Below are positions 16,389 through 56,841 of a stretch of DNA of 64,000 nucleotides, piece by piece. Made by a program: the position numbers and the translations under genes. The DNA is taken from assembly GCA_964489445.1 (NCBI GenBank), contig CAZAYU010000006.1, positions 53,518-117,517 on the forward strand, written 5' to 3'. Below the pieces are notes generated by a model, which saw nothing but the letters and a program-made list of their open reading frames with translations, did no database searches and was not told the origin of the DNA. The DNA is from an uncultured Planctomycetia bacterium. GTDB lineage: Bacteria > Omnitrophota > Gorgyraeia > Duberdicusellales > 4484-171. The first letter of the stretch is position 1. Every line of letters begins with the position of its first letter.

Positions 16389-17495
16389 CTATTTCTTCAA
16401 ATCTAAATGTTTTTCAATTTCTTCTAAAAAAGCGGTTAATTTGTGTAAGTTTTGGTTAACATCCTGAGAATCGCAATTGATTTGTTGTAAAGTTTGATCA
16501 ACTATCTGTGTATTGTTAATAATCTTTCCTAATAAATCAACTACTTCTAAAAACCTTTCCTTAAGTAACCCTAAATCACTAGTCGTTATCTCTTTCGCCT
16601 CTAAAAAATTATCATTCAATGATCTTAATTCACTATTAACGGTCTCATGTTTTATAGATAACTCCTGAAATAGACGAATGATCTCAAAAGAATTACCATT
16701 AATAGTTCTTACATCCTCATGGAAAAGCCCTAAAAGCTGTTTTAATTCTTCATTCTTGTTTGCAAAAACATGCAATAAATTATTTATTTCGACAAAGGCC
16801 TCTTTAAAGGACTTTAAATCAGCTTCCACAGACTCTTGGAACGCCTTATCTTGTTTAACCGTTTGGTCTAAAAAGTTGTTCGTACTCAACGATACGTCAT
16901 TTAGAGACTTTAAACCAGCTCCCACAGACTCTTGGAATATTTTGTCCTGTTCAACTGTCTGGCTTAAGGAGTTATCTACGCTTAGGGATACGTCATTTAG
17001 AGACTTTAAACCAGCTCCCACAGACTCTTGGAATATCTTATCCTGTTCAACTGTCTGGCTTAAGGAGTTATCTACGCTTAGGGATACGTCATTTAGAGAC
17101 TTTAAATTGGCTCCCACAGACTTTTGGAATATTTTGTCCTGTTCAGCTGTCTGGCTTAAGGAGTTATTTACGCTTAGGGATACGTCATTTAGAGACTTTA
17201 AACCAGCCCCCACAGACTCTTGGAATATCTTATCCTGTTTATTCATTTGATTTAAGGAGCTAACTACTATGCTTAAACTTTTCACAATTGAAACATTGTA
17301 TATTTTTATATTAAAAATAAAATCACCGATATTAGCTAAAAATCTAAACACAACAGCAACAACCGCCCCAGTTAATAAAACAACACTATACTTCTCCCAA
17401 GAGCCGGCACACCAGATTCCTCCAAGTATAGCGCCAATAAATAATGCACTCCAAGAAAAAGCTATCAACGCCCAACCTATGAATGTACGTTGCAT
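16389..17495 (-). CDS. Membrane-anchored coiled-coil repeat protein (2 N-terminal TM helices + ~5 x 32-aa tandem repeats)
   Basis: N-terminus WALIAFSWSALFIGAILGGIW… followed by repeats (E)QDKIFQESVGAGLKSLNDVSLSVDNSLSQTV, encoded by a 96-bp DNA tandem array. A further heptad-rich alpha-helical tail follows. Confidence 0.6.
   Translation of the reverse strand: MQRTFIGWALIAFSWSALFIGAILGGIWCAGSWEKYSVVLLTGAVVAVVFRFLANIGDFIFNIKIYNVSIVKSLSIVVSSLNQMNKQDKIFQESVGAGLKSLNDVSLSVNNSLSQTAEQDKIFQKSVGANLKSLNDVSLSVDNSLSQTVEQDKIFQESVGAGLKSLNDVSLSVDNSLSQTVEQDKIFQESVGAGLKSLNDVSLSTNNFLDQTVKQDKAFQESVEADLKSFKEAFVEINNLLHVFANKNEELKQLLGLFHEDVRTINGNSFEIIRLFQELSIKHETVNSELRSLNDNFLEAKEITTSDLGLLKERFLEVVDLLGKIINNTQIVDQTLQQINCDSQDVNQNLHKLTAFLEEIEKHLDLKK
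16780..17255. repeat. Tandem 96-bp repeat array (~5 copies, near-identical) inside the coiled-coil gene
   Basis: The motif gatacgtcatttagagactttaaaccagctcccacagactcttggaatat recurs at 16891, 16987, 17083 and 17179, with a degenerate copy near 16795. Confidence 0.85.
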
Positions 17496-18838
17496 ACTAC
17501 CCCCTTATTTACTAACAATTTTTTTTGTGAATCAAGCAATAAATTAAAAATGCCTGGAATTTCTGCGTTTAAGCCATTGAGCCACTTGTCAAAATTAAGC
17601 GTGAACGCTTTTATTAATCTTTGATTTACAATAGGATGCTTCTTAATAAGAAAATCCTCCCAATTATTATGTAAATCCAACATTAATAGCAACCTTTTAG
17701 AAAATAGCGATAGGCTGGTATCCCTGCCCCCTAATATATTTTCCAGTAAAATATTCAGAGTTCCGCCAATAAATACAGAATCTACTAATCTTTTTTTTAA
17801 AAGATTACCGGTTAAAAGAGCAAATACTAAAAAATTTTGAAAAAAACCAGAACGCTTATTTAATAATGTTCGTAATGAACTACTTTTTGAATCTAAATGA
17901 TAAAAAAAAGTCAAATCTACCATACTAAAGTATAAAACAGAAAAAGGGATATTTCTTATATCTTGTATTGAATTTTTTTTCTGATAAATGAACAAAAAAT
18001 CCTGGAAAAAAAGATACATGCAAAGTAAAAAATCAATATACATTAACTTTAATCTTTTATGTAAAAAGTCATCGGTCATAAATCTATTGGCTAAACCAAT
18101 ATTCTCCTTTATCTTCACCGACAATTTTTGATAATCACGATAGTACCCTTTTCCCTGATGATACATGAAATTCCAATTCCAATACGCACTAAACAAAGAA
18201 GAAAGGCTGTCCTTTTTTGTATGGTAGACTAGGGCTTCAGGCACATAGACTAAACTGTATCCCAACCTTTTAACTTTCTTTGATATATCCACATCCTCAT
18301 AGTTAGTCGCATATTTTTCATTATAGCCACCTGAGTTTAAAATACATTTTTTCCGAAAAACTGTGTTAGATCCAAATAAAAACCGAATCGAACTTGTTTT
18401 TTTCTCTCCCCACTCCTGTTTCATATGAACCGCACGCCAAGAATCAATGATGTGCTTTGTCTTTCTTTCCAGCATTCTCCCCCCCACACCCCCTACTTTT
18501 GGTGAAATAAAACTATTCATTAAATTTTCAAGCCATTTTTCATCAACTACACAATCTGCATCTACAGCTGCTATAAACTCACCATTGGAACTTTTAACTG
18601 CTGTATTTCTTACTGCCGCTAACCCTTTGTTGGTTTTGTGTTTGATTAATTTAACTGGAAATTTTAAGGCTAATTTGCTGGTTTCATCTACGGAGCCATC
18701 GTCAATAACCAATATTTCTTCTATCGGATAAGACTGTTTTAAAACCGCCTTTAGGCAACGTTCAATATACTCTGCCGCATTAAAGCATGGTATATAAACA
18801 GTAACTTTAAACTTTGCAGTATTTCTTTTTTTACTCAT
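17477..18838 (-). CDS. Glycosyltransferase family 2 with C-terminal membrane domain
   Basis: VYIPCFNAAEYI…VIDDGSVDET…AVDADC (DxD) GT-A motifs. The C-terminal ~200 aa is hydrophobic. Confidence 0.75.
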   Translation of the reverse strand: MSKKRNTAKFKVTVYIPCFNAAEYIERCLKAVLKQSYPIEEILVIDDGSVDETSKLALKFPVKLIKHKTNKGLAAVRNTAVKSSNGEFIAAVDADCVVDEKWLENLMNSFISPKVGGVGGRMLERKTKHIIDSWRAVHMKQEWGEKKTSSIRFLFGSNTVFRKKCILNSGGYNEKYATNYEDVDISKKVKRLGYSLVYVPEALVYHTKKDSLSSLFSAYWNWNFMYHQGKGYYRDYQKLSVKIKENIGLANRFMTDDFLHKRLKLMYIDFLLCMYLFFQDFLFIYQKKNSIQDIRNIPFSVLYFSMVDLTFFYHLDSKSSSLRTLLNKRSGFFQNFLVFALLTGNLLKKRLVDSVFIGGTLNILLENILGGRDTSLSLFSKRLLLMLDLHNNWEDFLIKKHPIVNQRLIKAFTLNFDKWLNGLNAEIPGIFNLLLDSQKKLLVNKGVVCNVHS

Positions 18839-20061: not shown

Positions 20062-21202
20062 AGTTCTCTATGATTTTTCGATATTCCTGTAATGCTTTTA
20101 TGGCCTTTTTAATTATTTTACTTTTATTACATCCGGAATCAGCATCCATTTTGGAGAAAAAAGTACTTATAATTTTTCCCAGAGAATCAGATTCAGGGTT
20201 AGCCCAACACGTTTGCAAACATGGTTTTTGGCAAATCTTCATTAGCGCTCTTGCTTTATCAGCCTCTTCTGTATGCAAACAGAAATCCAACCCTGCCTCA
20301 GCAATGTTACCAAAAGAAGATCCACAACTTCTTACCTCTCCGTCCGGACCAATATTAATAAACACAAAAGGATTACACTTCCACATATCACAACTTAAAG
20401 ATCCTTTAAAGTAATCTACCCATAAGTATGGATCATGCAAAAAAACTACTAAACCATTAGCCATCTGATAGCCAACAATCTTGCCTATCTGTTCCTTTAA
20501 TTTATCGATACCGCTGCCCGTAATCCAGAATGGAGCATCGGCAGAAGTGTTTTGCATGTCATTTTGAGCAACAATTACCGGATGATAAACCAAACACTCA
20601 ACACCTAGCTCTTTTACAATATCAATAATATTAAAAAGCTCCGATACATTTTCCTTCATTATGGTCGTCCATACTGAAATCTGCGGACCACTACCGATTT
20701 GCCTTTTAGCATCCACTAAATTGCTTATTGCCTTTAATGCATTATTAAAACTTCCTTTTTCCCGAATAAAATCATGAGTAAATTCTGTTGCACCATCCAA
20801 GGAAATAGCTATATTCTTTAGCCCCGAATTTACTATTCGCTTGGCTAGCGCCTTATCAATTAATGAACCATTGGAAACTATTTCTATTTTTACTTTATTC
20901 ATTACAGCATGATCGATTATCGAAAATATATCTCTTCTTAAAAAAGGTTCTCCACCTGTAAGAGTTACAACTGTATCCCATCCCCAACCAGCAATATTTT
21001 CCAACGCAGCATTAACCGTTGATTGAGGTAATTCCTGCCCCTTCAATATTTTAACAACACCACACATTTTGCAGCTATATGTGCATTTATGGCTTAAGCT
21101 AACATATACCCAGCACGGTTTAGCAAACGGATAATTTAACACTTCTGAAAAGTAATAGGCTAAATTAGCTTCAAATTGACGTAAATAACTCGAATTGGTC
21201 AT
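20054..21202 (-). CDS. Radical SAM/SPASM protein (family B, paralogue 2 of 4)
   Basis: SLSHKCTYSCKMCGV followed by LTGGEPFLRRD, with C-terminal CQKPCLQTC. Confidence 0.8.
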   Translation of the reverse strand: MTNSSYLRQFEANLAYYFSEVLNYPFAKPCWVYVSLSHKCTYSCKMCGVVKILKGQELPQSTVNAALENIAGWGWDTVVTLTGGEPFLRRDIFSIIDHAVMNKVKIEIVSNGSLIDKALAKRIVNSGLKNIAISLDGATEFTHDFIREKGSFNNALKAISNLVDAKRQIGSGPQISVWTTIMKENVSELFNIIDIVKELGVECLVYHPVIVAQNDMQNTSADAPFWITGSGIDKLKEQIGKIVGYQMANGLVVFLHDPYLWVDYFKGSLSCDMWKCNPFVFINIGPDGEVRSCGSSFGNIAEAGLDFCLHTEEADKARALMKICQKPCLQTCWANPESDSLGKIISTFFSKMDADSGCNKSKIIKKAIKALQEYRKIIENYA

Positions 21203-22297
21203 TTATTTTTTAATACAGTTAAAATTTTTTAAAAAACACAAAGTATCATTTAAAACATCTGACGGAAAATATACACAATCCTGCAAACAATGTTCCTTGC
21301 ATTTTCTAGCCTTTATCCGCATTTTCGCAGCAGAAATTGAATACCAAATTGATTTGAGACTTTTTTCTTTTAAATCACCATAAATACCCGAACAACTCCA
21401 AAGTTTCCCATCAGAAGTAATCACTATCCGTTTAATACCCTCATAGCACTTAAAAGAAGACTGGGGGCGCTTGCCTCTAAAATAAGCAGGCAAGGATTTC
21501 AATATGGCATCATCCGTATATACACAAGGATTACTATCGGTATGCTTAATCCTAATTATTTTTGGTATAATTTCTTCAAGCTGGCCAATCATTTCTAGTG
21601 ATGGCCAAAGAGGGCTATTCACTTTCTCGTACATTTTTGTATTGCTAAAAAGTAAAGGCTGAAAAACAATGATATTACATTTCTTTAATCGAGCAAACTC
21701 AACCATCGGAAGCATATCGCCAATATTACTGTTCATTATTGTAAAATTTATGCCTAATGAAGGAAAATATGAATTTTTCTTGGCTTTATAATAATTTAAT
21801 TTATCAATATTTCTTTCAGCACAAGCAAACATTCCTTCACTACGAATAAAATCATTGCACTCTTTAAGTCCATCTAAAGAAACAGTAATATGGCTTAAAG
21901 GAATTTTAATTAACCGCTGGATAATATCATCACTAAGTAGCACTCCATTAGTAATAATATCTACCATTTTAATGCCGCTGCTCTTGGCAAACTCCACCAT
22001 ATCCAATAATTTACTTTTTAAGAATGGTTCTCCGCCAGAAAAAATAAGATGCCGAACGCCTAATTGTTTTATCTGAAGAATAATATCCTTCACCTCCGCA
22101 AACGTAAGCTCATGCTCACATTCCCTATCTTCCGGATCTTTAGAAATATCACACATTTTACAATTTAAGTTGCAGCGATTGGTTAAAGAAAAATAAACAT
22201 GTTCAGGGGGAACTAGCGGAAAAGAAAGCAAACGACTAAAAGAAAATCCTATTTTTTCCTGAAGAGTAATCCACTCTTCCTTTGAATTATTTACCAT
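21203..22297 (-). CDS. Radical SAM/SPASM protein (family B, paralogue 3 of 4)
   Basis: SLTNRCNLNCKMCDI followed by FSGGEPFLKSK, with C-terminal CKEHCLQDC. Confidence 0.8.
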   Translation of the reverse strand: MVNNSKEEWITLQEKIGFSFSRLLSFPLVPPEHVYFSLTNRCNLNCKMCDISKDPEDRECEHELTFAEVKDIILQIKQLGVRHLIFSGGEPFLKSKLLDMVEFAKSSGIKMVDIITNGVLLSDDIIQRLIKIPLSHITVSLDGLKECNDFIRSEGMFACAERNIDKLNYYKAKKNSYFPSLGINFTIMNSNIGDMLPMVEFARLKKCNIIVFQPLLFSNTKMYEKVNSPLWPSLEMIGQLEEIIPKIIRIKHTDSNPCVYTDDAILKSLPAYFRGKRPQSSFKCYEGIKRIVITSDGKLWSCSGIYGDLKEKSLKSIWYSISAAKMRIKARKCKEHCLQDCVYFPSDVLNDTLCFLKNFNCIKK

Positions 22298-23853: not shown

Positions 23854-25537
23854 CTTTTAAATCTGGTAAACAGATAATATCTTTATAATATAAAATCTCT
23901 TGCTTCTCGGAAATATTCTCTGCTTCATGAATATTCTTCCAAGCATTTTGCGAATCACCCAAAGCATCATAAACCAAAGCCTTTCCAATATACAGCCGAT
24001 AATCTTGAGGATCTTCATCAAGATTAATTGATTTATTAAAGTACTCTAAAGACTCAGGATACATTCCTAATCGACGATATGTTTCTCCTATATAATAAAA
24101 AACCAAAGACCAATTAAAATCAACTAAATACCCTCCCAACCAATCATCATTTAATAAATTATTTTCCGTACGCTCTCTGATATTTTGGATATTCCAAAGC
24201 GCATCAGGATTCATTAAATAAACTGTTTCAAAATATTCTACCGCCCGTTCTAATATTCCACCTGGTAAACGTAAGGATTCAAAAGCCGCCCGCTTGATTG
24301 CTCCCTCTATCTCATCGCTTCGAGTCCCTCGCTTTTCTAGTGAAGGAAAATCGGAAACTACTATTGAAAAATCAGCTTGCTCATCGCTGATGTTAGCTAC
24401 TTTACTTTTTAAAAAAGTTTGAATAATAACCTTAACCGCTAAATAGTTGCACTCCCGATACCAATGGCAATTATCACTAAACTGCTCTCGGCCCAAAAGC
24501 CCCTCACTAGCCTGGCTGATGAACTCCTTCTCGATATCTGCCAGCAACACCGACTCTTCATCACAAACAGAACGAACAATCTTATTACTTTCAATACTTG
24601 CCCGGCCACTTCCGAATGACAAATCCAATGCTTTATGATAACACACCCTAGCTTTATCGTATTCTGCTAACTGTCTGTAGCAATTCGCTAATAGATATAA
24701 TCCAAAAGTATTTTCCGGATTGTTGTCCAAAAAACTATTTATAGCCCCAATCGCACCTTTATAACCTTTCTGATCAAATAAATAATGGGCTAAAAGATAC
24801 TCCTTATCTACTGGTCTTATTCCAAACGGCGCACAATCTGCAAAATTAACCGGCAAGGTACACAAAATCACCGGTATCTTTTTGTTCTTCGCTGCTTGCG
24901 TAATTAAGTGTAAATTTTTTTCATAGTCTACTAACCTTTGTTTTCTGCTGCGATATTGAGAACCGGATTCTCCAGTAAATTTAAGAAATTGTTCTTGCAA
25001 CTTCTGATAGACCCAAGATTTTTTAAATATTTTATCAAGCCGATACTTTAAAACATCAACTTTAACTACATTGTAGAATTCATTATTGCCAGAAAATACA
25101 ATAATTAAATCCGGATTGTAAGCTAATATTTCTTTTTCTACTAAATAAGCTCTATAACTATCATATGCTCCCATTGCACAAGGAACAACCTTGATATCTC
25201 CATCGGGAAGTATTCTCTTAAGCTCATTTTTAAAAAAAGGATTTCCTCCGAAATTGTGTCCGACTGAACCACCAATAATAAAAATTCGTAACTCATTCAG
25301 CGGCTTATCCATCAGAAATTCTTCAGAATTATTAAACGCCCTCTGTGGTACATAAAAAATTCCTTCTTTTCTACGCTCTTTTTTAAAAAAATCCTTATAA
25401 ATATCTATGTATTGGTATTGGAATTGGGGTAGATCCTTGTTAGATGGTGCAACACCATAACGAATAATCATTACACATTCAAAAAATACCAAAACCAGAA
25501 TTACGATAGCCATAAAAATAACTATAAATTTTTTCAT
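23843..25537 (-). CDS. Membrane-anchored SGNH-like hydrolase domain fused to C-terminal TPR repeats (putative)
   Basis: N-terminal TM helix. Blocks resemble SGNH hydrolases (FIIGGSVG, GAYDS, VFSGNNEF, DNCHW). C-terminal TPR-like helices (YLLANCYRQLAEYDKA…, IGETYRRLGMYPESLEYF…). Confidence 0.4.
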   Translation of the reverse strand: MKKFIVIFMAIVILVLVFFECVMIIRYGVAPSNKDLPQFQYQYIDIYKDFFKKERRKEGIFYVPQRAFNNSEEFLMDKPLNELRIFIIGGSVGHNFGGNPFFKNELKRILPDGDIKVVPCAMGAYDSYRAYLVEKEILAYNPDLIIVFSGNNEFYNVVKVDVLKYRLDKIFKKSWVYQKLQEQFLKFTGESGSQYRSRKQRLVDYEKNLHLITQAAKNKKIPVILCTLPVNFADCAPFGIRPVDKEYLLAHYLFDQKGYKGAIGAINSFLDNNPENTFGLYLLANCYRQLAEYDKARVCYHKALDLSFGSGRASIESNKIVRSVCDEESVLLADIEKEFISQASEGLLGREQFSDNCHWYRECNYLAVKVIIQTFLKSKVANISDEQADFSIVVSDFPSLEKRGTRSDEIEGAIKRAAFESLRLPGGILERAVEYFETVYLMNPDALWNIQNIRERTENNLLNDDWLGGYLVDFNWSLVFYYIGETYRRLGMYPESLEYFNKSINLDEDPQDYRLYIGKALVYDALGDSQNAWKNIHEAENISEKQEILYYKDIICLPDLKDEE

Positions 25538-26937
25538 TTTTGAAATGTCTTATGCGCGGGCACATCTCCAAGCGCAGAGATCAATTCGATAAACTTTTCG
25601 TAACGCTTTTTTCTAATTTCTGTTGTATGATTACCGTTCTGAGAGTGCCAATTCCTTTGATCGTCGGCAACAATTCCAAATCTTTGCTTATGTCTGAATA
25701 ATAAACTAGAAGATTTAAGGATAAAGGAATTAACCATTATATTATTCTTGAGATACATCATATTTTCAGACACAAACTCAAGCGTCTGGTTAAAATCTTT
25801 TTCCGTCTCTGTAGGAAAACCGACAATCCAATTAGTACAAACAGCAATTCCCGCTCGATATGTATCCTTTATTATTTTTTTTGCTTCTTCAATCATAAAG
25901 TTTTTATTCATTTGGCGTAAAACACGAGGTGAAGCACTTTCAATGCCATAATTCAAATAACAACAACCAGATTGTTTCATCTTCCTAAACAACTTATAAT
26001 CCATTTGCTTATCTACCGTAGCGCTAGCTCCCCACGAAATATTAATATTTTCTTTTATCAACAGATCACACAAACCTGACAATTGACTAAGATTTCCATT
26101 AATTAACAAATCATTAAACTCTAAAAATTCAATACCATTGTCTTTACGTAATCTTATTTCCGCTAAAATATTTTTTGCACTCCTATATCTATAACGCCTC
26201 CACATAAGAGTATCATCACAAAATACACACCTATTTACGCACCCTCTGCTTCCTAGAATAGGTAGTCTGTCTTTAAATTTATACTTTTCAGGGAAATCGT
26301 TAAATTCCGGGAAAGGTATTGAGTCGATATCTTCTATTAGTCTCCTTTCTCCATTATTAAACATCCGATTGTTTTCTCTAATAATAGTTCCTGGGCAACC
26401 TATAAGCGAATTCTTGCTTTCAATGCGTTGCACCACATCAATAATAGTTGATTCTCCTTCCCCAAGCACAACAACATCGATAGTTTTAACGCCCAAAAGG
26501 TTCTCTATTCCCAGCAAATAATATGAATGATCCAAGCTATAGCTTAAGTGCAAGGGCCCGCCAAAAACAATCTTTTGCTCCGGACATATACTCTTTATTT
26601 CACCAGCTAAACTAATACTTGCTGTCAAAGAAGAGCTTTGCACTGAAAAACCAATTAAATCTGGATTACTACTTAATATTCTTTGCGCCCATTTTTTAAA
26701 ATAACAACTAGGAAGTATTTTTTGCTTAATAATATGATTGTTTTCCATCCATTCAAAAACATACTGAAACTCCCAAAATTTTTTGTCCTCTTCTTTTGTT
26801 CTCGAATACAACTCTACGTTCAAATCAAAAACTGTAGCTTGGTGTTTATATCTTCTTAAAAACGCAACCAGATAAGCCAAACCTAAAGGAGGCCGATCAA
26901 TTCCAAAAGCCGGACATTGTACAAGAGTAATTTTCAT
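25534..26937 (-). CDS. Cobalamin-binding (class B) radical SAM protein
   Basis: N-terminal B12-binding-like domain (…FGGPLHLS…) then GSRGCVNRCVFCDD. The track start at 26988 is TTG; ATG (MKITLVQCP, as in paralogues) is at 26937. Confidence 0.7.
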   Translation of the reverse strand: MKITLVQCPAFGIDRPPLGLAYLVAFLRRYKHQATVFDLNVELYSRTKEEDKKFWEFQYVFEWMENNHIIKQKILPSCYFKKWAQRILSSNPDLIGFSVQSSSLTASISLAGEIKSICPEQKIVFGGPLHLSYSLDHSYYLLGIENLLGVKTIDVVVLGEGESTIIDVVQRIESKNSLIGCPGTIIRENNRMFNNGERRLIEDIDSIPFPEFNDFPEKYKFKDRLPILGSRGCVNRCVFCDDTLMWRRYRYRSAKNILAEIRLRKDNGIEFLEFNDLLINGNLSQLSGLCDLLIKENINISWGASATVDKQMDYKLFRKMKQSGCCYLNYGIESASPRVLRQMNKNFMIEEAKKIIKDTYRAGIAVCTNWIVGFPTETEKDFNQTLEFVSENMMYLKNNIMVNSFILKSSSLLFRHKQRFGIVADDQRNWHSQNGNHTTEIRKKRYEKFIELISALGDVPAHKTFQK

Positions 26938-27019
26938 TTTAATACTAACAGCTAATAAGATAGCTTTTATGAGACTATTTACTGTCAAAAATGTTTTCTA
27001 TAAACATTTTAGTAATACC

Positions 27020-27793
27020 CTACCTAGACTCAACAATTTCTTGAGATAAGTTCCGTAGCAGCACTTTAACGTGCTCAAGGCGAATGTTAATGTCCTCATT
27101 TAGCTGTTTTAACCCATTATTATTAAGAACTATTTCGCTGTTAACATTATCTAGTGTAAAAGATACACTCCTTCTCTGGGCTGCTGAATCTTCGCTTGCT
27201 GAAGACAATAAGCTACTTAATGATTGAACCGAATTATCAAGTCTATCTATCTCTTGTTTTACATTTAAAGAAGAAAGAGATTCGGGTAATAGCTGTAAGG
27301 TTTCATTAATTTTTTCAAATGCTGAAGACAGTAAGCTACTTAATGATTGAACCGAATTATCAATTTTTTCAAATTTATCTTTTAAAGTACAATCAATACG
27401 CTCTTCAAAAACATCTATCTTGGCTAGCACCTGTCTCATCTCCAAAGATAAACCACTGCTTAAAGAGTTTATCGAGTTATTCATTCCGCTTAGCTCTTTT
27501 GAAATAGCCAATATTTGAGAATAAAGGAATGAAGAAATATTAAAAAATATTTGGGATATATTTCCAAGCACCCTAACAATTGTTCCCAAAAGAATGCTTA
27601 CTAGAACAACCATCAACCCACTAAAAAATAATTTTGGATTAGTAAATCTAGCAAGCATCAAGTAACTGCCTCCTAAAAAGCCAAAGACCACAATCAGCCA
27701 AGAAAGAACCATCAAAATAACAGTGGTGGGAATATTTTTTGTCTTCACAACCATAGCATAACCTCCTTCTTTATTACATTTTTTTGTTGCCAA
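27020..27793 (-). CDS. Membrane-anchored coiled-coil protein (2 N-terminal TM helices + Ser/Leu-rich repeats)
   Basis: TM helices TTVILMVLSWLIVVFGFLGG and LMVVLVSILLGTIV. Repeated DNSVQSLSSLLSSA(F/S)E units sit 41 aa apart, matching DNA repeats at 27198 and 27321. Confidence 0.55.
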   Translation of the reverse strand: MATKKCNKEGGYAMVVKTKNIPTTVILMVLSWLIVVFGFLGGSYLMLARFTNPKLFFSGLMVVLVSILLGTIVRVLGNISQIFFNISSFLYSQILAISKELSGMNNSINSLSSGLSLEMRQVLAKIDVFEERIDCTLKDKFEKIDNSVQSLSSLLSSAFEKINETLQLLPESLSSLNVKQEIDRLDNSVQSLSSLLSSASEDSAAQRRSVSFTLDNVNSEIVLNNNGLKQLNEDINIRLEHVKVLLRNLSQEIVESR

Positions 27794-29956
27794 TCAATAA
27801 AAGACTTTTATCTTACCCGAATAATATCGGTATCTTCCTTTAGAAAAAATATTATCATCATCACTAAAACTTTTCCTGTAAATTATTCCTCTTGCCTGGA
27901 GCTGTTTATTAGTATTGTGAATCGCTAGCAAATCACTTGCTACCAATAATTTATCTGGCTCAAAAACGACTGAAGGAAAACCTTTAATGACTCTCATTAA
28001 TCTATTACGCTGGGTCTTCAACTTTCCTTGAGAAAACCTAACTAGCTCTACCCAAGAATCATTAAATTTATTAGACAACTTGGACGTTAAGCCATCAATA
28101 TCCAACAATTGATATTTATCAGACAGCATAAGATTTGTATCATAACGATCAATTTGTATTCTCTGCTCCAAAAACATACTTATTTCAATTATTAAACAAT
28201 GAGGATCGTTTAACTTGACTTTCCAAACCTGACACATCGGAAACCTAGTATATTCCCCTTTGGCAATTATAGTATCATTGACACACCTCACTTTCCATGA
28301 TGCCTGCAGAGAATCAATCCAATGGCCCAAAGAAAAAACAGAGGTATATAAGCCAAAATGTTTGGTTAATTCAACGCCATTATAAAAAATTCTCCCCTTC
28401 CCTTGGTCAAATAAAAACTCTAAAGCTCTTTTTTTTATAGATATCTTCTGCTTTTTATACCCTTCATTTGCTAATATTTTTTGTGTTATTTTTTTATTAA
28501 TATCAGACATTCCTTTGCTGTCTAAATACCCTCCCACTCGATTAGTGTAAAATTTTCTGCCACACTTTTCCCAAAAAATATCCATTCTTCTTAATCGTTC
28601 ACCGTAATTATTTGAAAGATCTTGAGTTTGCCAATCATAAATATTGTTGCTCTGTATATTATACAAGTTAAGATTATTATGAATATACGAATGCGGCTTT
28701 ATTGTAAATACTGATGAATCTAACCCGGAAATATATCTTCTGTTATTTTCAATAAAGTGCAATGTTTTTTCAAAGTCCTTAATCGTCTCGGTTGGAAAAC
28801 CAACAATCCAGTTAGTAAAGACAGCAATGCCGGAAGAATACGCATCTACAATATTTTGACGCGCAGCATCAACTGTAAATGGCTTTTTCATGCTGCGCAG
28901 AACATCATTTGATGCGCTTTCAATTCCAAAATTAAGATACTCACAGCCTGATTGTCGCATTTGCTCAAAAAGCTTTCGATTCATGTCCAGTCTTACAGAA
29001 ATACTCGCCCCCCATCTTGTAATTATATTATTTTTAATGATCAGTTTACACATTCTAAGTAAGGAATCTAAATCTGCATTGATTAACTCATCGTTAAAAT
29101 GAAAAAACTCAACCTGGTAATTATTTCGCTGCACATTCATCTCCTCAACGACAGATTCTGGACTTCTCTTACGAAAGACATAGTTAAAAAAATAAGGATC
29201 ATTACAAAATGCACAATGGTTAATGCACCCTCTACTTGTTAAAATCGGCAAAAATTTCAAATCAGTATAAGCGTTTAAGGAATAACCAGAAAAGTCCGGA
29301 TAAGGCAATTTATCTATATTCTTGCTCAAAGGGCGCACTTTATTGATTAGCAATGAATAGCCCTCTTTAGCGATTATCCCCTCGCATCCTTTTAAACTTT
29401 TTCCACTATTTACCCTTTCGACAATTTCCGGAAAGACATCCTCCCCTTCTCCCACAACGACAATGTCAATAATTCTCATAATATTCTTAATTCTCACGCC
29501 AGGGTTTATTGCACCATCAAAGATATTTACATTTTCAATAATAAATGGTCCGCCAAAAATTATTTTGGCGTTTTTACTAAACTCTTTAATTTTTTTTGCT
29601 AAAAGAACACTTACATTGACCGATGTGTTATACACTGTAAACCCTATTAAATCAGGAGTAGTATTCAAAATACTTTTAGCCCAGAGATCTAGTACCTTTC
29701 CACCCAAAAAATTAATATTTCTGATAGTACGTTCATCTTCCCATTCATGCTCAAGAGTATTCTGTGTCCAGAATGATTCAGACTTATAATCCCAATTTCT
29801 TTTTTCAATATCATTCACCTTATTGTAAAGGCTGATATTAAAATCAAACTGAAGCACATTATTTCCACGCTTTTCTAAGACTGATTTTAAGTAAGCCGGA
29901 CCTATTTGCGGCATCCGAGGATTAAACATTGGACATTGTATAAGGGCGATATTCAT
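27794..29956 (-). CDS. Cobalamin-binding (class B) radical SAM protein with C-terminal ~200-aa domain homologous to the Wzt C-terminal repeats
   Basis: MNIALIQCP B12-domain start, …FGGPFII…, and ILTSRGCINHCAFCND. The C-terminal GKGRIFYNGVELTKHFGLYTSVFSLGHWIDS…IDRYDTNLMLSDKYQ aligns to each repeat in ORF 54112..56841. The track start is GTG at 29974; ATG with a GGAG RBS is at 29956. Confidence 0.75.
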   Translation of the reverse strand: MNIALIQCPMFNPRMPQIGPAYLKSVLEKRGNNVLQFDFNISLYNKVNDIEKRNWDYKSESFWTQNTLEHEWEDERTIRNINFLGGKVLDLWAKSILNTTPDLIGFTVYNTSVNVSVLLAKKIKEFSKNAKIIFGGPFIIENVNIFDGAINPGVRIKNIMRIIDIVVVGEGEDVFPEIVERVNSGKSLKGCEGIIAKEGYSLLINKVRPLSKNIDKLPYPDFSGYSLNAYTDLKFLPILTSRGCINHCAFCNDPYFFNYVFRKRSPESVVEEMNVQRNNYQVEFFHFNDELINADLDSLLRMCKLIIKNNIITRWGASISVRLDMNRKLFEQMRQSGCEYLNFGIESASNDVLRSMKKPFTVDAARQNIVDAYSSGIAVFTNWIVGFPTETIKDFEKTLHFIENNRRYISGLDSSVFTIKPHSYIHNNLNLYNIQSNNIYDWQTQDLSNNYGERLRRMDIFWEKCGRKFYTNRVGGYLDSKGMSDINKKITQKILANEGYKKQKISIKKRALEFLFDQGKGRIFYNGVELTKHFGLYTSVFSLGHWIDSLQASWKVRCVNDTIIAKGEYTRFPMCQVWKVKLNDPHCLIIEISMFLEQRIQIDRYDTNLMLSDKYQLLDIDGLTSKLSNKFNDSWVELVRFSQGKLKTQRNRLMRVIKGFPSVVFEPDKLLVASDLLAIHNTNKQLQARGIIYRKSFSDDDNIFSKGRYRYYSGKIKVFY

Positions 29957-31647
29957 TGATGTCTCCGCTTCCACTCTTCGGCAAAATTAATATTTTCCGG
30001 CCGAACGAGCCTTGAGAATTCATAATATATAACAAACCCTTGGGCAGTTATTCTCTTTTTATGCCTGATATCATGCTCACTTAAATACTCATCCATTATA
30101 TCAATATGCCCAAACTTATGATTACCAGTAAATACATAAGCATACCTATTAGCTCTATCTACAGCCTGTTCATAATAATCATATCTCTCGCCAAAGTGGC
30201 AATCATCATATATTACATCCCCAGTACTTGAACAACTCCAAATGCCCCTGCACGATGCAATGATTTTCTCCTTGCTTTCAAAAACTAGCGGCCACTTAGC
30301 ATCATAATACGTATAGACGTAATGAATATCTTTTTCCAGTAACTCACTAATAAGCTGCCTTAGCCCCGACATCGACCAACGATCACCATTAATGTAGAAA
30401 TTTATATTTCCAAATAAACTAATTAAAATAATGCTTACAGCTAAAACAACTGAAATGATCTTACCTAGAAAATTAAACTCAAAGAGCTTTATTATAAACA
30501 AGGAAATAAAAATATAAAAAAAAGGATACAAAACCATTGCATAATGATCCCTCCACACATAATCACTACTATACTGGCTGAAAGAATAAAGAAGCGAATA
30601 GAACAGAGGAAAAACAAGTAACAACGATTCCGGATTAATTTTTTCGGGAATAACATTGTGCTTGGTTGAAGGTATGACTCCTTTTATGACATTCTTTAAA
30701 GATTCTCTATTCAACCAAATAAGAAAACAAACGGAAATAACCACCACGAAATAATATAAATAATTAATAAATGATGCGTTAAAGAAAGGAATTAATTCAA
30801 AGTTAAACGAATCAGGAATGCGATAAAAAAATAAATCCTTAATACGGATAAATCTCTCAGCAATATAAGAAGAAGTAAATAAGAACTTATCAACTTCCAG
30901 CCCCATCAACGGACTACTGTATCCACTGAAAATAGCATACAATAAAGGACTAATTCCAACAGTAAAAGATACAACAAAAATAAGAAACTGAACCCGCAAA
31001 AAAAATAACTTGTCAAAAAGATACCAATAAAACATGATAACCAAAACAAAAATAAATGCAGAAACATGATACGCAATAGCTAAGCCGGATAACACGCCTA
31101 AAATTATCCAATAGCCATACCTATCTAATGGTAGCGCCTTGCGCTTTGAATTAAAAAAAATGCTAAAAAAAACAAAAAATATTAAAATATCAAAAAACAA
31201 TATATCATGATGATTAGCCACACAGTATAAGCTATAGCGAAAATACGAAGGAATAGAAAAAATATACAGTAGACTAGTTAGTAGTGCAACCTTTCGACTA
31301 AAAAATTTATTTGTAAATGTAAATAAAATAACCAGTATTCCTATACTAAATATTAACGGAACCAGTCTCAAGGAAATTGTGGAAACACCAAACAATAAAA
31401 ATAGGGGAACCGCCATAAACGAGGACACCACGGAGCCCAACCCATAAAGATGAATATATGAAAGGTGTGCCTGCGTATTATTTCCTTCTAATATATGTTT
31501 TGCTAAAATCCCTCTTACTCCTTCCTCAGACATAACTACATTACAAGCAGAATATAAAACCAATAAACGTAATCCTACCAATGTTATTATCAACAAACTA
31601 ATAACAAAAAACTTATTCTTCAATATACCTAATTTCATTTTTACCAA
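29953..31647 (-). CDS. Polytopic membrane protein, probable GT-C fold glycosyltransferase (ArnT/PMT_2-like) with C-terminal soluble domain
   Basis: About 11 predicted TM segments. N-terminal loop motif SEEGVRGILAKHIL resembles the DE(x)R…IA…M loop of ArnT/PMT enzymes. The ATGA overlap with the upstream gene implies translational coupling. Confidence 0.45.
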   Translation of the reverse strand: MVKMKLGILKNKFFVISLLIITLVGLRLLVLYSACNVVMSEEGVRGILAKHILEGNNTQAHLSYIHLYGLGSVVSSFMAVPLFLLFGVSTISLRLVPLIFSIGILVILFTFTNKFFSRKVALLTSLLYIFSIPSYFRYSLYCVANHHDILFFDILIFFVFFSIFFNSKRKALPLDRYGYWIILGVLSGLAIAYHVSAFIFVLVIMFYWYLFDKLFFLRVQFLIFVVSFTVGISPLLYAIFSGYSSPLMGLEVDKFLFTSSYIAERFIRIKDLFFYRIPDSFNFELIPFFNASFINYLYYFVVVISVCFLIWLNRESLKNVIKGVIPSTKHNVIPEKINPESLLLVFPLFYSLLYSFSQYSSDYVWRDHYAMVLYPFFYIFISLFIIKLFEFNFLGKIISVVLAVSIILISLFGNINFYINGDRWSMSGLRQLISELLEKDIHYVYTYYDAKWPLVFESKEKIIASCRGIWSCSSTGDVIYDDCHFGERYDYYEQAVDRANRYAYVFTGNHKFGHIDIMDEYLSEHDIRHKKRITAQGFVIYYEFSRLVRPENINFAEEWKRRHQ

Positions 31648-40167: not shown

Positions 40168-41403
40168 TCAATTTTCAAAAAAATTATTCCTGACTACCAC
40201 ATCGTAAATATTTTGAGCCATGACTCCATACCCTTGAGCATTAGGATGTCCCCTGTCTTCTGATAAATATTCTTCTTTGTCTTTCCAAATTTCATTGAAT
40301 CTTTTTTCATTGTCAATGTAGGTAGCTCCATTATTTTCTGCAACTTCTTGCAAAATATAATTCATATCCTTGAAGGACCAAATATCCTCACATTTTGGAT
40401 AATTTTGGATTATTACGGGAATCTCTTTGTCTTTGCAAATATTGATCATCCTTGTAATATCCGAATTAACCCACCCTTGTAGCGTCTTCAAGTACAATAT
40501 TAAATCCTTTTCTCTTTTAATAAAATCTCTGACTATTTCACTTTCTTCTTCAAATTGCGATAAAAACTTAATATTCTCATTCCTTATTTCTGGTTTTTGA
40601 GAAAGAAAATTTGAAATAAAAAATCCTAACGGCTGATATTCATTAGGATTAATTTCTATTGCTTTCTTTGCGTATTCATACGCAATTTCATCATCATGAA
40701 GCATAAGAGCATATATTCTTGCAATTTGCCAATAAGATTCACAATACTCAGGCTCTAATTCCATTGCTATTTTATACCACCTTATCCCTTCCTCCCATTC
40801 TCCTTCATTTTCACAATTCCGTGCTTTATTCCAAGCATTATTAAACTCTTCTGATAAATGAATTTGTCTGTCTTTTTTTTGATCACTCTTAATCTGCTTT
40901 TGTATGTTTTTGGATAATAATTTTACCAATTTGTACACCTTAATCGACTGGATAGAATTATAAATTCTGGCACTTAATGTTTTCTCTTTTGTATATTTAA
41001 TATATCCTTGTGCATACCAAATATTTGCACCTCCAGCTAGAATAACTACTAAGTCCGGATTAAATTCTGCTATCCATCCATCAAATTTCGATAAAATTGA
41101 AAATGTATTGTACCCGCCTACCCCTCGGTTGATAACCTGACAATTTATCTTATTATTATCTGCATTTAACAATTTCTCTAATTGCCGGGGGTAACTTTTA
41201 TCAGAAGGAGCACCGCTACCATGAGTAAATGAATCCCCTACACATAGAATGATATAGCTATTAGCTTCTTTTTGATTGACTTTATCTCTAGCGGCATTTT
41301 TTAGACAAACATACCCTGTCAATCTCAAACCACCTTCAAGTGCTACCAAACAAACAACAATTCCTAGTAAAAAAACAATAAATTTACGTCTTAATAAAAA
41401 CAT
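40168..41403 (-). CDS. SGNH/GDSL hydrolase domain + TPR repeats, secreted/membrane-anchored (tandem duplicate copy A)
   Basis: N-terminal TM helix. Motifs CVGDSFTHGSGA (block I), GGAN (III) and DRGHPNAQGYG (V), with TPR-like C-terminal region. Confidence 0.7.
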   Translation of the reverse strand: MFLLRRKFIVFLLGIVVCLVALEGGLRLTGYVCLKNAARDKVNQKEANSYIILCVGDSFTHGSGAPSDKSYPRQLEKLLNADNNKINCQVINRGVGGYNTFSILSKFDGWIAEFNPDLVVILAGGANIWYAQGYIKYTKEKTLSARIYNSIQSIKVYKLVKLLSKNIQKQIKSDQKKDRQIHLSEEFNNAWNKARNCENEGEWEEGIRWYKIAMELEPEYCESYWQIARIYALMLHDDEIAYEYAKKAIEINPNEYQPLGFFISNFLSQKPEIRNENIKFLSQFEEESEIVRDFIKREKDLILYLKTLQGWVNSDITRMINICKDKEIPVIIQNYPKCEDIWSFKDMNYILQEVAENNGATYIDNEKRFNEIWKDKEEYLSEDRGHPNAQGYGVMAQNIYDVVVRNNFFEN

Positions 41404-54111: not shown

Positions 54112-56841
54112 TTACTCTCCGTTAACCATTATTTCACCTTTTGAATATATATACTCTCCAGGCATTAAACTAATCGGAACATCATCTAAATATTGTAAAA
54201 CTCTACCACGAAAATTAAGATCTGTGTTTACTATGTTAAGCTTGTCCTGCTGACTTCTAAAAAAGGGGGTAAATATTATTTCGGGAAAATAACTTTCCTT
54301 TTTTCTAATCCTCTTTACCCCAGCATAGAACTTATTATCCTCCGACAAACAACATGAAGAAATAACTCCCCAATCATCGTCAACATTTCCATCAAAAAGA
54401 GGAAATGTCCCTTCATTTTTATTGAATGCCCATTGTTTATATTCTTCAGAAAGCATAATATTTGTCTGCTGGCGATCAATTCCAATTTCTTTATTAACTC
54501 TCATTTTAATTGAAAACGCAATAACACCCTCCCGTACTAATCTTAAATTCCAATATTGTTCTATTGGCAAATGCATCCATCTGCCAATAGAATTAATTTC
54601 GGAATCATTACCCTGAACACTCCATACAGCATGCGTACAAGAATCGTACCATCTGCCTTGCGACCGCAAAGAGGTATAAAAACCAAGCTGCTTTGTTAAT
54701 TTTTTATCATTCCAAAATATTTCTCCTCTCCCATTTGTTAAATTATACTTTAATTTTTTTTTCGCCACCATCCAAGAATCATTGGTAGTATTTTGTTGTT
54801 TAGCGTCATATTTTAAGGAAATTCTTACCTCAAAACACCTATGCCTACCTTGCGCAAACTTTCTTTTATCCTCCGGTTCAACACTTTGGATAGACAATAC
54901 TCTTGTCCGGCAAGACATAGCTGAATTAAAAATTTTAGCAAAATTATGCGGTTTTTTAGAGAAATCTAATAAAATATCCGGCAAATGTTTATCTAAACTA
55001 GACAAAATAATACTTTCATCGGGAATACATCTTTGCAACATATCCTCTTCGCGCTCTGAAAAAATATCCGAAAATGCACCCTTACCATACTTACTAAAAT
55101 AATATTTGTATCTTTCTGATAACTCAATCCTGATAAACTTTTCCTCAATCTCTAATTCATCTTTTATCTCGATATCTAAAGTAAAAATAAAATAATCTTC
55201 ACTAATAATTTCTATTTCCCAGATACAAATAACAGGTAAATACGCACTCTCACACCTGGCAATTATTTTTTTATTGCCTTCTTTTTTTATCTCCCAGAAA
55301 CTAGATTCAAAATTATACACCCGGCCTGCACAACGTAAAAAAAAGCTTACACAATTACCTTTGACTAAAGATAAATCATTAAAGAACGGAATGACTTTCC
55401 CATTATTAAATGTTAACCTTAACCTCTCTTGTGATATTGTTGTTTCGTCTTGAATATTCTTAAGATAAGCAGGCACATCTTTGATTCCAATAATGATTTT
55501 TCCGCTAAAAAATGTTAACCGTTTCCCTTTATTTTTAGAATAATTTTGTACATTCGCTATTTGAAATTGCAAAATTCGCGAGGAAATGAAACAATCTGAA
55601 TTTAATATTTGCCCATAGACAGGTAAAGCAGATAATGATTGTTCAACAATAAAAGAAGGCATACTCTCAGCAAGGCTATTCTCGGTTATTACTCCGATAC
55701 ATCTTCTAGAAATATTATCTTCCAATAAAGGCATCCATTGGTTATTACCTTCAATTATGGAGGGAAAATTATCTTTTTCGCCTAGAGAAGTAAACCATTG
55801 CTGATATTTATCAACTAAAATAAAATCAACACATCCCTGTTCAATTTCCATCATTTGTTCACTCTCAATCCCAATATCTATCTTTATCTCGCCGGAATCC
55901 ATCAATTCTATTTTCCAAACAACAATAAGCTCTATTTGATATATCCGCCCCTTAGCTGTAATCCGCTTATCACTTTCTTCTTCAATCTCCCAGTAGGCTT
56001 GAAAAGAATTGTACCGTTTATCTCGCGTAAAGAAATTAATATGTATTCCGGAAGAATTAGTAATAGGCTGATCGGCCCAATTAATAAATAAGCGGCCATT
56101 ATTAAATACAATACTTAAATTATCTTTTTTTAGGATCCCGACACCCTCCTTTGCCCCGACTACTTGTGTATAAAGAGCGATGGTCTTTTTCACCTCAGAA
56201 TCCTTAATGAGCCTACCCTCTTTAAGCAAAATAGCTCTCTTGCAAAGCCTCTGCAGCATCCCCATTTCATGGGTAACGTAAACAATTGTTGCACCTTTTT
56301 CTCTGATTTCAAATATTTTCTTTATGCATTTTTTTTGAAAAGACTCATCTCCCACCGCTAAAGTATCATCGATTAATAATATTTCCGGATCCAGACAAAT
56401 AGCAATCGAAAACGCCAAACGGACAAACATTCCTTGAGAGTAATACTTAACCGGAGCATTAATAAATTTCCCAATTGCGGCAAAATTTTCAATATCTTCG
56501 TATTTCTGATCAATTTCCTGTCGTGTAAATCCAAAAAAAGTGCTGTTTAAGAAAATATTATCTTTTCCGCTTAATTCCTGCTGAAAACCAGCTCCCAAAT
56601 CTAAAAGCCCGGTTACTCTCCCAGAAACACTCACCTCGCCTCGATCAGGGACGAGTATTCCGGCAATTAACTTTAAAATAGTAGATTTTCCTGCCCCGTT
56701 TTCTCCGATTATTCCCAGACTTTGCCCCTTCTCAACATCAAATGTTATATCCTTTAATGCCCAAAAATTATCCCAAGAAAGTTTACCATCAATAATAAAC
56801 TTTATTCGAAATATTTCCCAAACATCTTTAAACGTGATCAT
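54112..56841 (-). CDS. wzt: ABC transporter ATP-binding protein, Wzt/TagH-like, with ~650-aa C-terminal extension built from three tandem ~200-aa domains
   Basis: Walker A GENGAGKST, signature YSQGMF, Walker B ILLIDD, H-loop THE. Three repeats follow (…FNNGRLFINW…, …FNNGKVIPFF…, …GRGEIFWNDKKL…). Confidence 0.75.
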   Translation of the reverse strand: MITFKDVWEIFRIKFIIDGKLSWDNFWALKDITFDVEKGQSLGIIGENGAGKSTILKLIAGILVPDRGEVSVSGRVTGLLDLGAGFQQELSGKDNIFLNSTFFGFTRQEIDQKYEDIENFAAIGKFINAPVKYYSQGMFVRLAFSIAICLDPEILLIDDTLAVGDESFQKKCIKKIFEIREKGATIVYVTHEMGMLQRLCKRAILLKEGRLIKDSEVKKTIALYTQVVGAKEGVGILKKDNLSIVFNNGRLFINWADQPITNSSGIHINFFTRDKRYNSFQAYWEIEEESDKRITAKGRIYQIELIVVWKIELMDSGEIKIDIGIESEQMMEIEQGCVDFILVDKYQQWFTSLGEKDNFPSIIEGNNQWMPLLEDNISRRCIGVITENSLAESMPSFIVEQSLSALPVYGQILNSDCFISSRILQFQIANVQNYSKNKGKRLTFFSGKIIIGIKDVPAYLKNIQDETTISQERLRLTFNNGKVIPFFNDLSLVKGNCVSFFLRCAGRVYNFESSFWEIKKEGNKKIIARCESAYLPVICIWEIEIISEDYFIFTLDIEIKDELEIEEKFIRIELSERYKYYFSKYGKGAFSDIFSEREEDMLQRCIPDESIILSSLDKHLPDILLDFSKKPHNFAKIFNSAMSCRTRVLSIQSVEPEDKRKFAQGRHRCFEVRISLKYDAKQQNTTNDSWMVAKKKLKYNLTNGRGEIFWNDKKLTKQLGFYTSLRSQGRWYDSCTHAVWSVQGNDSEINSIGRWMHLPIEQYWNLRLVREGVIAFSIKMRVNKEIGIDRQQTNIMLSEEYKQWAFNKNEGTFPLFDGNVDDDWGVISSCCLSEDNKFYAGVKRIRKKESYFPEIIFTPFFRSQQDKLNIVNTDLNFRGRVLQYLDDVPISLMPGEYIYSKGEIMVNGE

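Follow-up and report, generated by a model that had tools for sequence, protein, structure and literature searches.

A divergent paralogue of an Omnitrophota two-transmembrane, helical-stalk family in a radical-SAM-rich glycan cluster: a putative membrane anchor and scaffold

The stretch of DNA analysed here (the window) comprises 64,000 nt of contig CAZAYU010000006.1 (assembly GCA_964489445.1, positions 53,518 to 117,517 of the forward strand) from an uncultured bacterium of the Omnitrophota. Its minus strand holds, at 27020-27754, a gene for a protein of 244 amino acids (aa), hereafter ORF 27020, that sits between two paralogous genes for B12-binding radical S-adenosylmethionine enzymes (B12-rSAMs). 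We found that ORF 27020 is a real gene whose product is a divergent member of a family of Omnitrophota proteins built from two N-terminal transmembrane (TM) helices and a helical stalk, and that the conserved neighbour of this family is a family 2 glycosyltransferase (GT2). Considering this neighbourhood and a natural fusion of the two, we propose, at a probability of roughly 40%, that ORF 27020 and its family serve as membrane anchors and helical scaffolds for soluble glycan-tailoring enzymes. The surrounding cluster is devoted to glycan assembly of the ATP-binding cassette (ABC) transporter, Wzm/Wzt type, in keeping with an earlier reading of the DNA (the preliminary description), and ORF 27020 lies in it on the same strand as the upstream B12-rSAM gene. 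Coordinates of the features discussed are collected in Table 1.

The longest open reading frame (ORF) at this position, intact on the minus strand as previously noted, begins at TTG 27793 and comprises 257 codons, with its stop at 27020. However, ATG 27754, not TTG 27793, is the likely start, since an AAGGAGG Shine-Dalgarno (SD) motif precedes it by 7 nt, gene calls of both JGI and ENA give a product of 244 aa, and, in the family alignment, the N-termini of over 30 homologues lie no more than a few residues from the Met encoded there. The segment 27755-27793, which is coding under the TTG reading, therefore becomes a 39-nt gap to the stop of the upstream B12-rSAM gene (27794), without overlap. 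The preliminary description had placed the two genes 1 nt apart and regarded them as likely co-translated; the 1-nt distance is true only of the TTG start of the longest ORF, and, with that start codon wrong, coupling of translation through overlap falls away. What stands is their co-orientation and likely co-transcription, since they share a strand and no terminator-like site rose above background; a scan for promoters and terminators around ORF 27020 gave nothing above shuffled sequences. SD-like motifs occur before 23 of 24 family genes at other loci (within L011-L047) and before both family copies in the window (AAGGAGG at 27762-27768 for ORF 27020; AAGGGGG at 17498-17506 for a second copy, ORF 16389), compared with just 4 of the 40 remaining genes of the window and, at related loci, 22 of 52 genes. 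Motifs of this strength suggest abundant synthesis, possibly with more of the family protein made than of its neighbours.

A Kyte-Doolittle profile of the first 60 residues of ORF 27020 shows two hydrophobic segments, with centres at residues ~14-29 and 46-60. An AlphaFold2 (AF2) model computed with the family alignment as input (mean predicted local distance difference test score, pLDDT, 88.3; predicted template modelling score, pTM, 0.45) has helices at residues 9-35, 40-159 and 165-243, with TM2 running straight into a helix of ~100 residues. Together these bear out the two N-terminal TM helices of the preliminary description. The juxtamembrane motif reads R61-VLGNISQIFFNIS, against a family consensus of RMFGNIGQMLFDLK. 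The ~180 residues beyond the TM helices are confidently predicted as helix in two long segments and are, as had been said, rich in Ser (18%) and Leu (16%). The coiled coil also ascribed to this tail was not confirmed in its canonical heptad form: the helices are long, and the mean of the heptad and hendecad core-position scores was reached by 0 of 200 shuffles, but the hydrophobic periodicity peaks at 3.64 and not at the 3.50 of a canonical heptad (its power was reached by 0 of 300 shuffles), which makes the tail an amphipathic helix that forms a seam rather than a clean 3.5-periodic heptad coil.

Within the tail, residues 133-148 and 174-189 carry the repeat DNSVQSLSSLLSSA(F/S)E, whose two copies (DNSVQSLSSLLSSAFE and DNSVQSLSSLLSSASE) lie exactly 41 aa (123 nt) apart, in agreement with the earlier observation. 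It is backed by a direct DNA repeat of 65 nt that is 85% identical and has one mismatch in its first 45 nt, far beyond chance. Tandem Repeats Finder detected no tandem array in the gene, and the repeat consists of two dispersed copies. From the repeat positions, the predicted helix break at residues 160-164 sits midway between the two copies, which would lie side by side if the tail folded as a hairpin. Scans of the 244 aa with Pfam and NCBIfam revealed no enzymatic domain; the AF2 model consists of TM and helix only, and Foldseek with it gave no match below E = 1 (best E = 1.4). Matches to Baculo_PEP_C, DUF1664, Apolipoprotein, SMC and ZorA-tail models (Pfam, NCBIfam, PADLOC) were generic helical ones and were discarded as compositional. 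One source names a relative (P0013) as a methyl-accepting chemotaxis protein (MCP); this identity was rejected, with no MCPsignal among the Pfam matches listed (the top 25 of 86 families) and just weak hairpin-like Foldseek and PDB matches.

Word-indexed homology searches returned only ORF 27020 itself from the single protein, and only ORF 27020 and two alleles of ORF 16389 from a family alignment. The family was recovered by an exhaustive phmmer search (E <= 1e-3), which yielded 84 cluster representatives including ORF 27020 itself, nearly all aligned from residue ~4 and the closest only 27% identical. Family proteins are 80-385 aa long and consist of three parts. The N-domain (~80 aa) contains the two TM helices, with the consensus MPTT..L..FSWLIA..G..GGYLI ... 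LLLA..IRMFGNIGQMLFDLK and the signature PTT..FSW..G..R-x3-N-I-G-Q-x2-F, in which R61 and F71 are invariant in the family alignment. The middle is hypervariable and made of lineage-specific tandem repeats, often 11-mers, such that the distance from the N-domain to the C-terminal part ranges over 0-210 aa (median 72). The last part is a near-invariant 39-aa motif (..EQINCDSKDINQNIHQIKTFFEQIERHLDLKK; C-motif), present in 72 of 83 relatives and sometimes internally duplicated.

Hidden Markov models (HMMs) of the N-domain and C-motif were built without either window protein. ORF 27020 matched the N-domain model at 86.2 bits (E 6e-29) and did not match the C-motif model (best -0.4 bits), of which only the remnants IDCTLKD and FEKINETL are left; it does have the repeat stalk of the family, with the 65-nt repeat in two copies, long helices and an amphipathic seam. 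ORF 16389 gave 22 bits (E 6e-9) for the N-domain and 54.8 bits (E 3e-19) for the C-motif. The preliminary description had assigned these two proteins the same architecture, which was confirmed, but no sequence identity. Pairwise BLASTP (E = 0.4) alone is misleading on this point, since the independent N-domain HMM matches both proteins, and by this profile evidence they are distant paralogues. A local HMM scan found just these two family copies in the window. Among Pfam and NCBIfam models none describes the family, which drew generic helical matches only, and a PDB profile search gave only weak apolipoprotein-like and designed coiled-coil matches. All 14 genome loci with the family pattern belong to metagenome-assembled genomes of Candidatus Omnitrophota, three of them labelled uncultured Planctomycetia or Planctomycetales; in the data found, the family appears to be restricted to the Omnitrophota, and it is undescribed as far as Pfam, NCBIfam and literature searches on Omnitrophota and coiled-coil rulers show.

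The order of genes around the family is strongly conserved. At all 14 genome loci it is rSAM, rSAM-SPASM, GT2 (~435 aa), family gene, B12-rSAM (~452 aa) and GT2 (~290 aa). Wherever upstream sequence exists (the 14 genome loci, L026/L027 and 17 metagenome loci), the family gene lies directly 3' of a GT2 gene of the type found at 17477 in the window. In most cases the ~452-aa B12-rSAM gene comes next, no more than a few nt away, and its start is often abutted or overlapped by the stop of the family gene. In the window, this canonical slot is occupied by ORF 16389, which overlaps the stop of the GT2 gene. For the downstream B12-rSAM of the canonical loci, the window holds no orthologue (best identity ~30%), and the neighbours of ORF 27020 therefore belong to a different subfamily. 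A SunS-like S-glycosyltransferase was considered for the GT2 at 17477, but a PDB sequence search returned only general polysaccharide or teichoic-type GT2s and no SunS-type entry.

One protein unites the two conserved neighbours. P0053 (506 aa) is a GT2 fused to the two-TM domain, without stalk or C-motif, and its GT2 part is 46% identical over 273 aa to that encoded at 17477-18838. It is encoded in the canonical slot at two loci (L029, 8001-9521; L030, 2321-3841), assembled in two sequencing runs, where there is no separate family gene. The enzymes that might be served by such a domain are mostly TM-free: the upstream rSAM (rSAM-CBD) and B12-rSAM(474) have no TM helices, and GT2(453) has one borderline hydrophobic window (265-284; score 1.65 vs the 1.6 threshold). 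Because of the universal GT2 adjacency, the GT2-hairpin fusion and the mostly TM-free client enzymes, the N-domain may be read as an anchor or docking subunit. Radical SAM and glycosyltransferase (GT) enzymes are cytoplasmic. Since the hairpin of P0053 follows a cytoplasmic enzyme, its N-terminus and, with two TM helices, its C-terminus would be cytoplasmic as well. This orientation would agree with the modest positive-inside bias of family sequences, whose N-tails average 1.9 K+R vs 0.26 D+E.

On this basis, ORF 27020 would be a small inner-membrane protein consisting of an N-terminal two-helix hairpin and an amphipathic stalk of ~180 residues broken at Pro162. The hairpin would tether soluble enzymes of glycan tailoring to the cytoplasmic side of the membrane, the site at which lipid-linked glycans are assembled, and the stalk would act as an oligomerising spacer or docking rod; in the family at large, stalk and C-motif may together make up a rod in the cytoplasm that bears a conserved epitope for binding. 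ORF 27020 would then be a second, lineage-specific copy that kept the anchor and stalk and lost the C-motif epitope. Its most likely task would be to organise at the membrane the flanking B12-rSAMs, one of which bears a sugar-binding-like domain of the exporter (see below), although we hold this part of the proposal at somewhat less than even odds. The interaction with any partner is putative, and the scaffold role is deduced from sequence, synteny and a structural model. A similar arrangement is known from GT2s of the GtrB/ArnC/DPMS type, in which a soluble GT2 is tethered by a C-terminal two-TM hairpin; here the hairpin is a separate gene or the P0053 fusion. The differences are that Foldseek matches to GtrB/ArnC hairpins were non-significant (E 3-7), that the GT2 here has an extra C-terminal region of ~170 aa, and that the anchor continues into a long stalk and has a conserved motif at its end.

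Several points weigh against an anchoring role. ORF 27020 lacks the C-motif and does not occupy the canonical GT2 slot, which leaves its client a matter of guesswork. All 10 contigs examined for it are 99.98-100% identical to the window and identical in the gene, which is thus known from a single clonal population and permits no dN/dS (nonsynonymous to synonymous substitution) or other selection test. The topology leans on a weak charge bias, the hairpin loop also carrying 1.4 K+R, and no characterised anchor or scaffold was matched in the Foldseek, Pfam and NCBIfam searches above. Finally, the P0053 fusion, having no stalk, is silent on what the stalk does.

The B12-rSAM directly upstream of ORF 27020 carries a C-terminal all-beta domain that links it to the exporter. 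By BLASTP, its residues ~513-726 (~215 aa) match three segments of the Wzt-like ATPase at E = 1e-22, 1e-12 and 1e-7. Pfam Wzt_C (PF14524) matched none of the four copies of this domain, even at E <= 10, nor did any other Pfam model. An AF2 model from the four-sequence alignment is all-beta (pLDDT 76, pTM 0.76), and Foldseek related it (E 5e-5 to 1e-3) to supersandwich domains of the galactose-mutarotase-like kind from glycoside hydrolases and polysaccharide lyases, none of the top 50 matches being described as an ABC-transporter or Wzt domain. The Wzt-like recognition domain that the preliminary description saw on this rSAM therefore holds as homology to the C-terminus of the Wzt-like ATPase in the window, but not as the Pfam Wzt_C family or the fold of a Wzt carbohydrate-binding domain (CBD). 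Judged from its modelled fold, the domain is plausibly sugar-binding, and, as tested by Pfam and Foldseek, it lies outside the known Wzt carbohydrate-binding module (CBM) family. Other Omnitrophota loci, L025 and L026, encode ABC ATPases of comparable length (911 and 918 aa).

The closest homologues of the upstream rSAM come from Omnitrophota (46-50% identity; 471-497 aa); they end at query residue ~482 and lack its C-terminal 244 aa, which include the beta-domain. Two relatives, L026 and L027/L028, have the same order as the window: large membrane protein, B12-rSAM, B12-rSAM, TPR, four rSAM, GT2 and family gene. There the two B12-rSAM genes are adjacent, with gaps of 343 nt and 3 nt. An HMM scan of all reading frames of these loci found no second family copy, and tblastn of the beta-domain against the fetched loci gave nothing at E <= 1e-3. 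Since both are absent from the relatives of the same order, the beta-domain and ORF 27020 form one block of ~1.5 kb that, relative to L026/L027, is present here only. The block marks lineage-specific presence, with which insertion and loss both fit. The preliminary description had made its linkage of the rSAM and ORF 27020 depend on synteny in related genomes; the pairing is absent from all related loci, and the conserved partner of the family is the ~435-aa GT2, not the rSAM at 27794. With regard to the downstream B12-rSAM, the longest ORF from TTG (484 aa) adds a hydrophobic N-terminal stretch, and the ATG at 26937 leaves a gap of 82 nt after ORF 27020.

Table 1. Positions of ORF 27020, its parts and related genes in the 64,000-nt window.
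Feature	Position	Strand	Remarks
ORF 27020, coding sequence	27020..27754	minus	244 aa from ATG 27754; stop 27020-27022; divergent paralogue of the Omnitrophota 2-TM + helical-stalk family
AAGGAGG Shine-Dalgarno motif	27762..27768	minus	7-nt spacer to ATG 27754; within the 39-nt spacer 27755-27793
Family N-domain of ORF 27020	27512..27745	minus	aa 4-81; TM1 ~aa 12-33, TM2 ~aa 42-60
First stalk helix	27278..27571	minus	aa 62-159, running on from TM2 in the AF2 model; holds C122-x3-D126 remnant and repeat copy 1
Predicted helix break LLPES	27263..27277	minus	aa 160-164 (AF2); Pro162
Second stalk helix	27026..27262	minus	aa 165-243; holds repeat copy 2; C-terminus LKQLNEDINIRLEHVKVLLRNLSQEIVESR unlike family C-motif
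DNA direct repeat, copy A	27320..27384		encodes DNSVQSLSSLLSSAFE; 123 nt from copy B
DNA direct repeat, copy B	27197..27261		encodes DNSVQSLSSLLSSASE
Upstream B12-binding rSAM enzyme	27794..29974	minus	gene callers: 720 aa from 29956; residues ~483-726 lineage-specific extension
All-beta domain in upstream rSAM	27797..28462	minus	aa 505-726; common to Wzt-like ATPase
Downstream B12-rSAM, paralogue of upstream one	25534..26988	minus	gene callers mostly start at 26937 (467 aa)
ORF 16389, family paralogue in canonical slot	16389..17495	minus	368 aa; divergent N-domain; four 32-aa repeats and a fifth, more divergent copy; C-motif QQINCDSQDVNQNLHKLTAFLEEIEKHLDLKK
Soluble GT2, conserved upstream neighbour of family	17477..18838	minus	453 aa
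Wzt-like ABC ATPase	54112..56841	minus	909 aa; three tandem beta-domain copies, ~aa 215-420, 464-678, 692-906
Wzm-like ABC-2 permease	56848-57642		adjoins Wzt-like ATPase

A different reading, which develops the model of the preliminary description, makes the system a split counterpart of WbdD: the B12-rSAM with its exporter-type sugar-binding domain would be the capping enzyme, and ORF 27020 a stand-alone molecular ruler that spaces this terminator from the membrane-bound polymerase, restricting capping and export to chains of set length. Terminated ABC-dependent O-antigen systems are marked by coiled-coil proteins, and in Klebsiella terminator enzymes are documented on coiled-coil proteins, one terminator having an extra CBM (PMC11231755). 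The cluster here is likewise of the Wzm/Wzt type, the domain common to the rSAM and the Wzt-like ATPase has a sugar-binding look to its fold, the domain and ORF 27020 are present or absent together in the ~1.5-kb block, and the stalk length of the family is variable (0-210 aa, possibly between strains by one 32-aa repeat). The likeness to WbdD (E. coli O9a; K. pneumoniae O3, O5) and WbbB (K. pneumoniae O12) thus extends to long helical rods, membrane attachment, a variability of length able to set distance and an exporter ATPase with extra C-terminal domains of sugar-binding type. However, known rulers carry the terminating enzyme distally on the same coiled-coil polypeptide and attach to the membrane by a C-terminal amphipathic helix or GT modules (PMC11231755), whereas ORF 27020 has an N-terminal two-TM anchor, no catalytic domain and no similarity to them in sequence or fold. 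Their coiled coils are extended and oligomeric; the tail of ORF 27020 has heptad and hendecad patterns above shuffles, but its periodicity is 3.64, its model has a pTM of 0.45, and the break at 160-164 may give a hairpin and not an extended rod. Moreover, ORF 27020 lacks the distal motif of its family, its pairing with the candidate terminator occurs in no other genome, overlap-type translational coupling is absent, and the beta-domain belongs neither to Pfam Wzt_C nor, within the top 50 structural matches, to any recognised Wzt CBD entry. We therefore consider a ruler unlikely. The same grade applies to its wider form, in which the family would be a modular tether or ruler for an rSAM-tailored, ABC-exported Omnitrophota glycan, with ORF 27020 positioning a B12-rSAM "cap-writer" that shares the "cap-reader" domain of the exporter; by analogy, this would amount to the logic of a split WbdD put together from unrelated parts, which is likewise improbable.

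The family proteins could instead be substrates of their neighbours, resembling peptides that are synthesised ribosomally and modified after translation (RiPPs): the conserved ends would serve as recognition elements, and the Cys-x3-Asp loop and repeat core would be modified by thioether cross-link, C-methylation or glycosylation through the adjacent rSAM-SPASM, B12-rSAM and GT2 enzymes. The family gene is embedded among genes for just these enzymes, its core is hypervariable and repeated between conserved ends, and its strong SD motifs suggest expression above that of the enzymes. A Cys-x3-Asp pentad, mostly CDSKD, occurs in 58 of 75 C-motif instances and is kept in ORF 27020 as CTLKD (C122..D126, 27377-27391); CX3D is the motif of the ranthipeptide thioether cross-link made by PapB (PMC9413430), and the family resembles the PapA precursors in having it conserved beside rSAM-SPASM genes. 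Yet the SPASM enzymes here fall far below the PapB cut-off (75 vs 340 bits), and the best NCBIfam matches of the enzymes, although of RiPP type (the TIGR03975 C-methyltransferase and an MftF-like GT), are all below curated cut-offs. The proteins, at 80-385 aa and with two TM helices, differ from PapA, and the Pfam results showed neither a RiPP recognition element (RRE)/PqqD domain nor a leader peptidase or peptide exporter. A "leader" with two TM helices is unusual among RiPP precursors. Since the core-less GT2 fusion fits an anchor better and the cluster otherwise comprises sugar chemistry and a Wzm/Wzt exporter, a substrate role seems unlikely to us. A decaying or neutral duplicate, that is, a stray family copy, would account for the lost C-motif, the non-canonical position without the usual partner, the confinement to one population and the mere 27% identity of the closest relative. 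An intact frame of 244 aa with a full-consensus SD motif, an N-domain better conserved than in the syntenic paralogue (86 vs 22 bits), an amphipathic pattern along the entire tail and a confident AF2 model speak against decay, which we regard as improbable. Lastly, the tail could lie in the periplasm or on the membrane surface and act on the envelope or lipid-linked intermediates, in the manner of Wzz and other polysaccharide co-polymerases (PCPs) or of apolipoproteins. Hypervariable repeats are typical of exposed proteins, the charge bias between N-tail and loop is modest, and many family members combine a periodicity of 3.6-3.67 with 11-residue repeats, as do apolipoproteins (ApoA-I, ApoA-IV, apolipophorin III), to which there are weak profile matches, besides matches to Pfam Apolipoprotein (PF01442) in 11 of 34 members. 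These matches are compositional (E >= 5e-5), confined to the low-complexity tail and in no case significant for ORF 27020, and they give no evidence of homology. PCPs are likewise membrane proteins with long helical domains, implicated in the control of glycan length, but they are built as TM-periplasmic domain-TM and act in Wzy-dependent systems, whereas both TM helices of ORF 27020 lie within residues 9-60, the system is of the ABC type and Pfam gave no Wzz match. With the conserved partners being cytoplasmic enzymes and the P0053 fusion putting the N-terminus of the hairpin, and thus its C-terminus, in the cytoplasm, we deem a periplasmic or surface tail very improbable.

Variation among the copies bears on where ORF 27020 came from. 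In the closest syntenic relative, L026, the canonical-slot member (20637-21416; called product 431 aa) has a divergent N-domain like that of ORF 16389 and 53-aa repeats rich in Ser, Leu and Asn (..NLSSLLKSSSLSN..) that recall the SLSSLLSS segments of ORF 27020. Complementary subfunctionalisation, with ORF 27020 keeping the N-domain and ORF 16389 the C-motif, is weakened as an explanation, L026 having only an ORF 16389-like copy in the region. Since ORF 16389 and the L026 copy share the divergent N-domain and that of ORF 27020 is canonical, sequence comparison suggests an old or foreign origin for ORF 27020 and not a recent duplication of ORF 16389. The ORF 16389 orthologue itself exists in forms of 368 aa and 336 aa (L001/L004 vs L002) that are 100% identical save for the exact loss of one 32-aa repeat, on contigs otherwise 99.98% identical, which reflects either real variation in repeat copy number or collapse during short-read assembly.

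The wider window is unusually dense in radical SAM genes. Between 977 and 53242, 17 genes with a Radical_SAM domain lie on one strand, five of them with B12-binding domains and several with SPASM, and four have two rSAM domains each (4711-7491, 44900-46984, 47001-49001 and 49096-52071). They are interleaved with genes for GT2/GT4, AsnB, carbamoyltransferase, YdjC, DegT, epimerase and Wzm/Wzt. Directly upstream of the rSAM pair around ORF 27020, a multi-TM protein of 564 aa (29953-31647) has a weak match to PMT_2, of the dolichyl-phosphate-mannose GT-C type; its position is kept in L026 and L027 (567 and 649 aa), and at L025 a PMT_2 + TPR protein of 857 aa lies upstream of a B12-rSAM pair. Two adjacent GDSL-lipase + TPR genes (40168-41403 and 41458-42696) are 99.5% identical over 399 aa and represent a very recent tandem duplication.

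ORF 27020 is the odd one out of its family, and its value lies in pointing to that family and in marking the block that adds the sugar-binding-like domain of the exporter to a B12-rSAM. The family is conserved, restricted to its phylum in the data found, and set in a very radical-SAM-dense cluster beside Wzm/Wzt and many GTs; its members may be helical, membrane-associated organisers of ABC-dependent glycan assembly. If they were substrates, they would represent a new class of membrane-tethered, rSAM-modified proteins. If they are anchors or rulers, control of length and position in ABC-dependent glycan assembly could be delegated to a separate, fast-evolving membrane protein, and the surface-glycan diversity of these uncultured, host-dependent nanobacteria would be readable from repeat counts.

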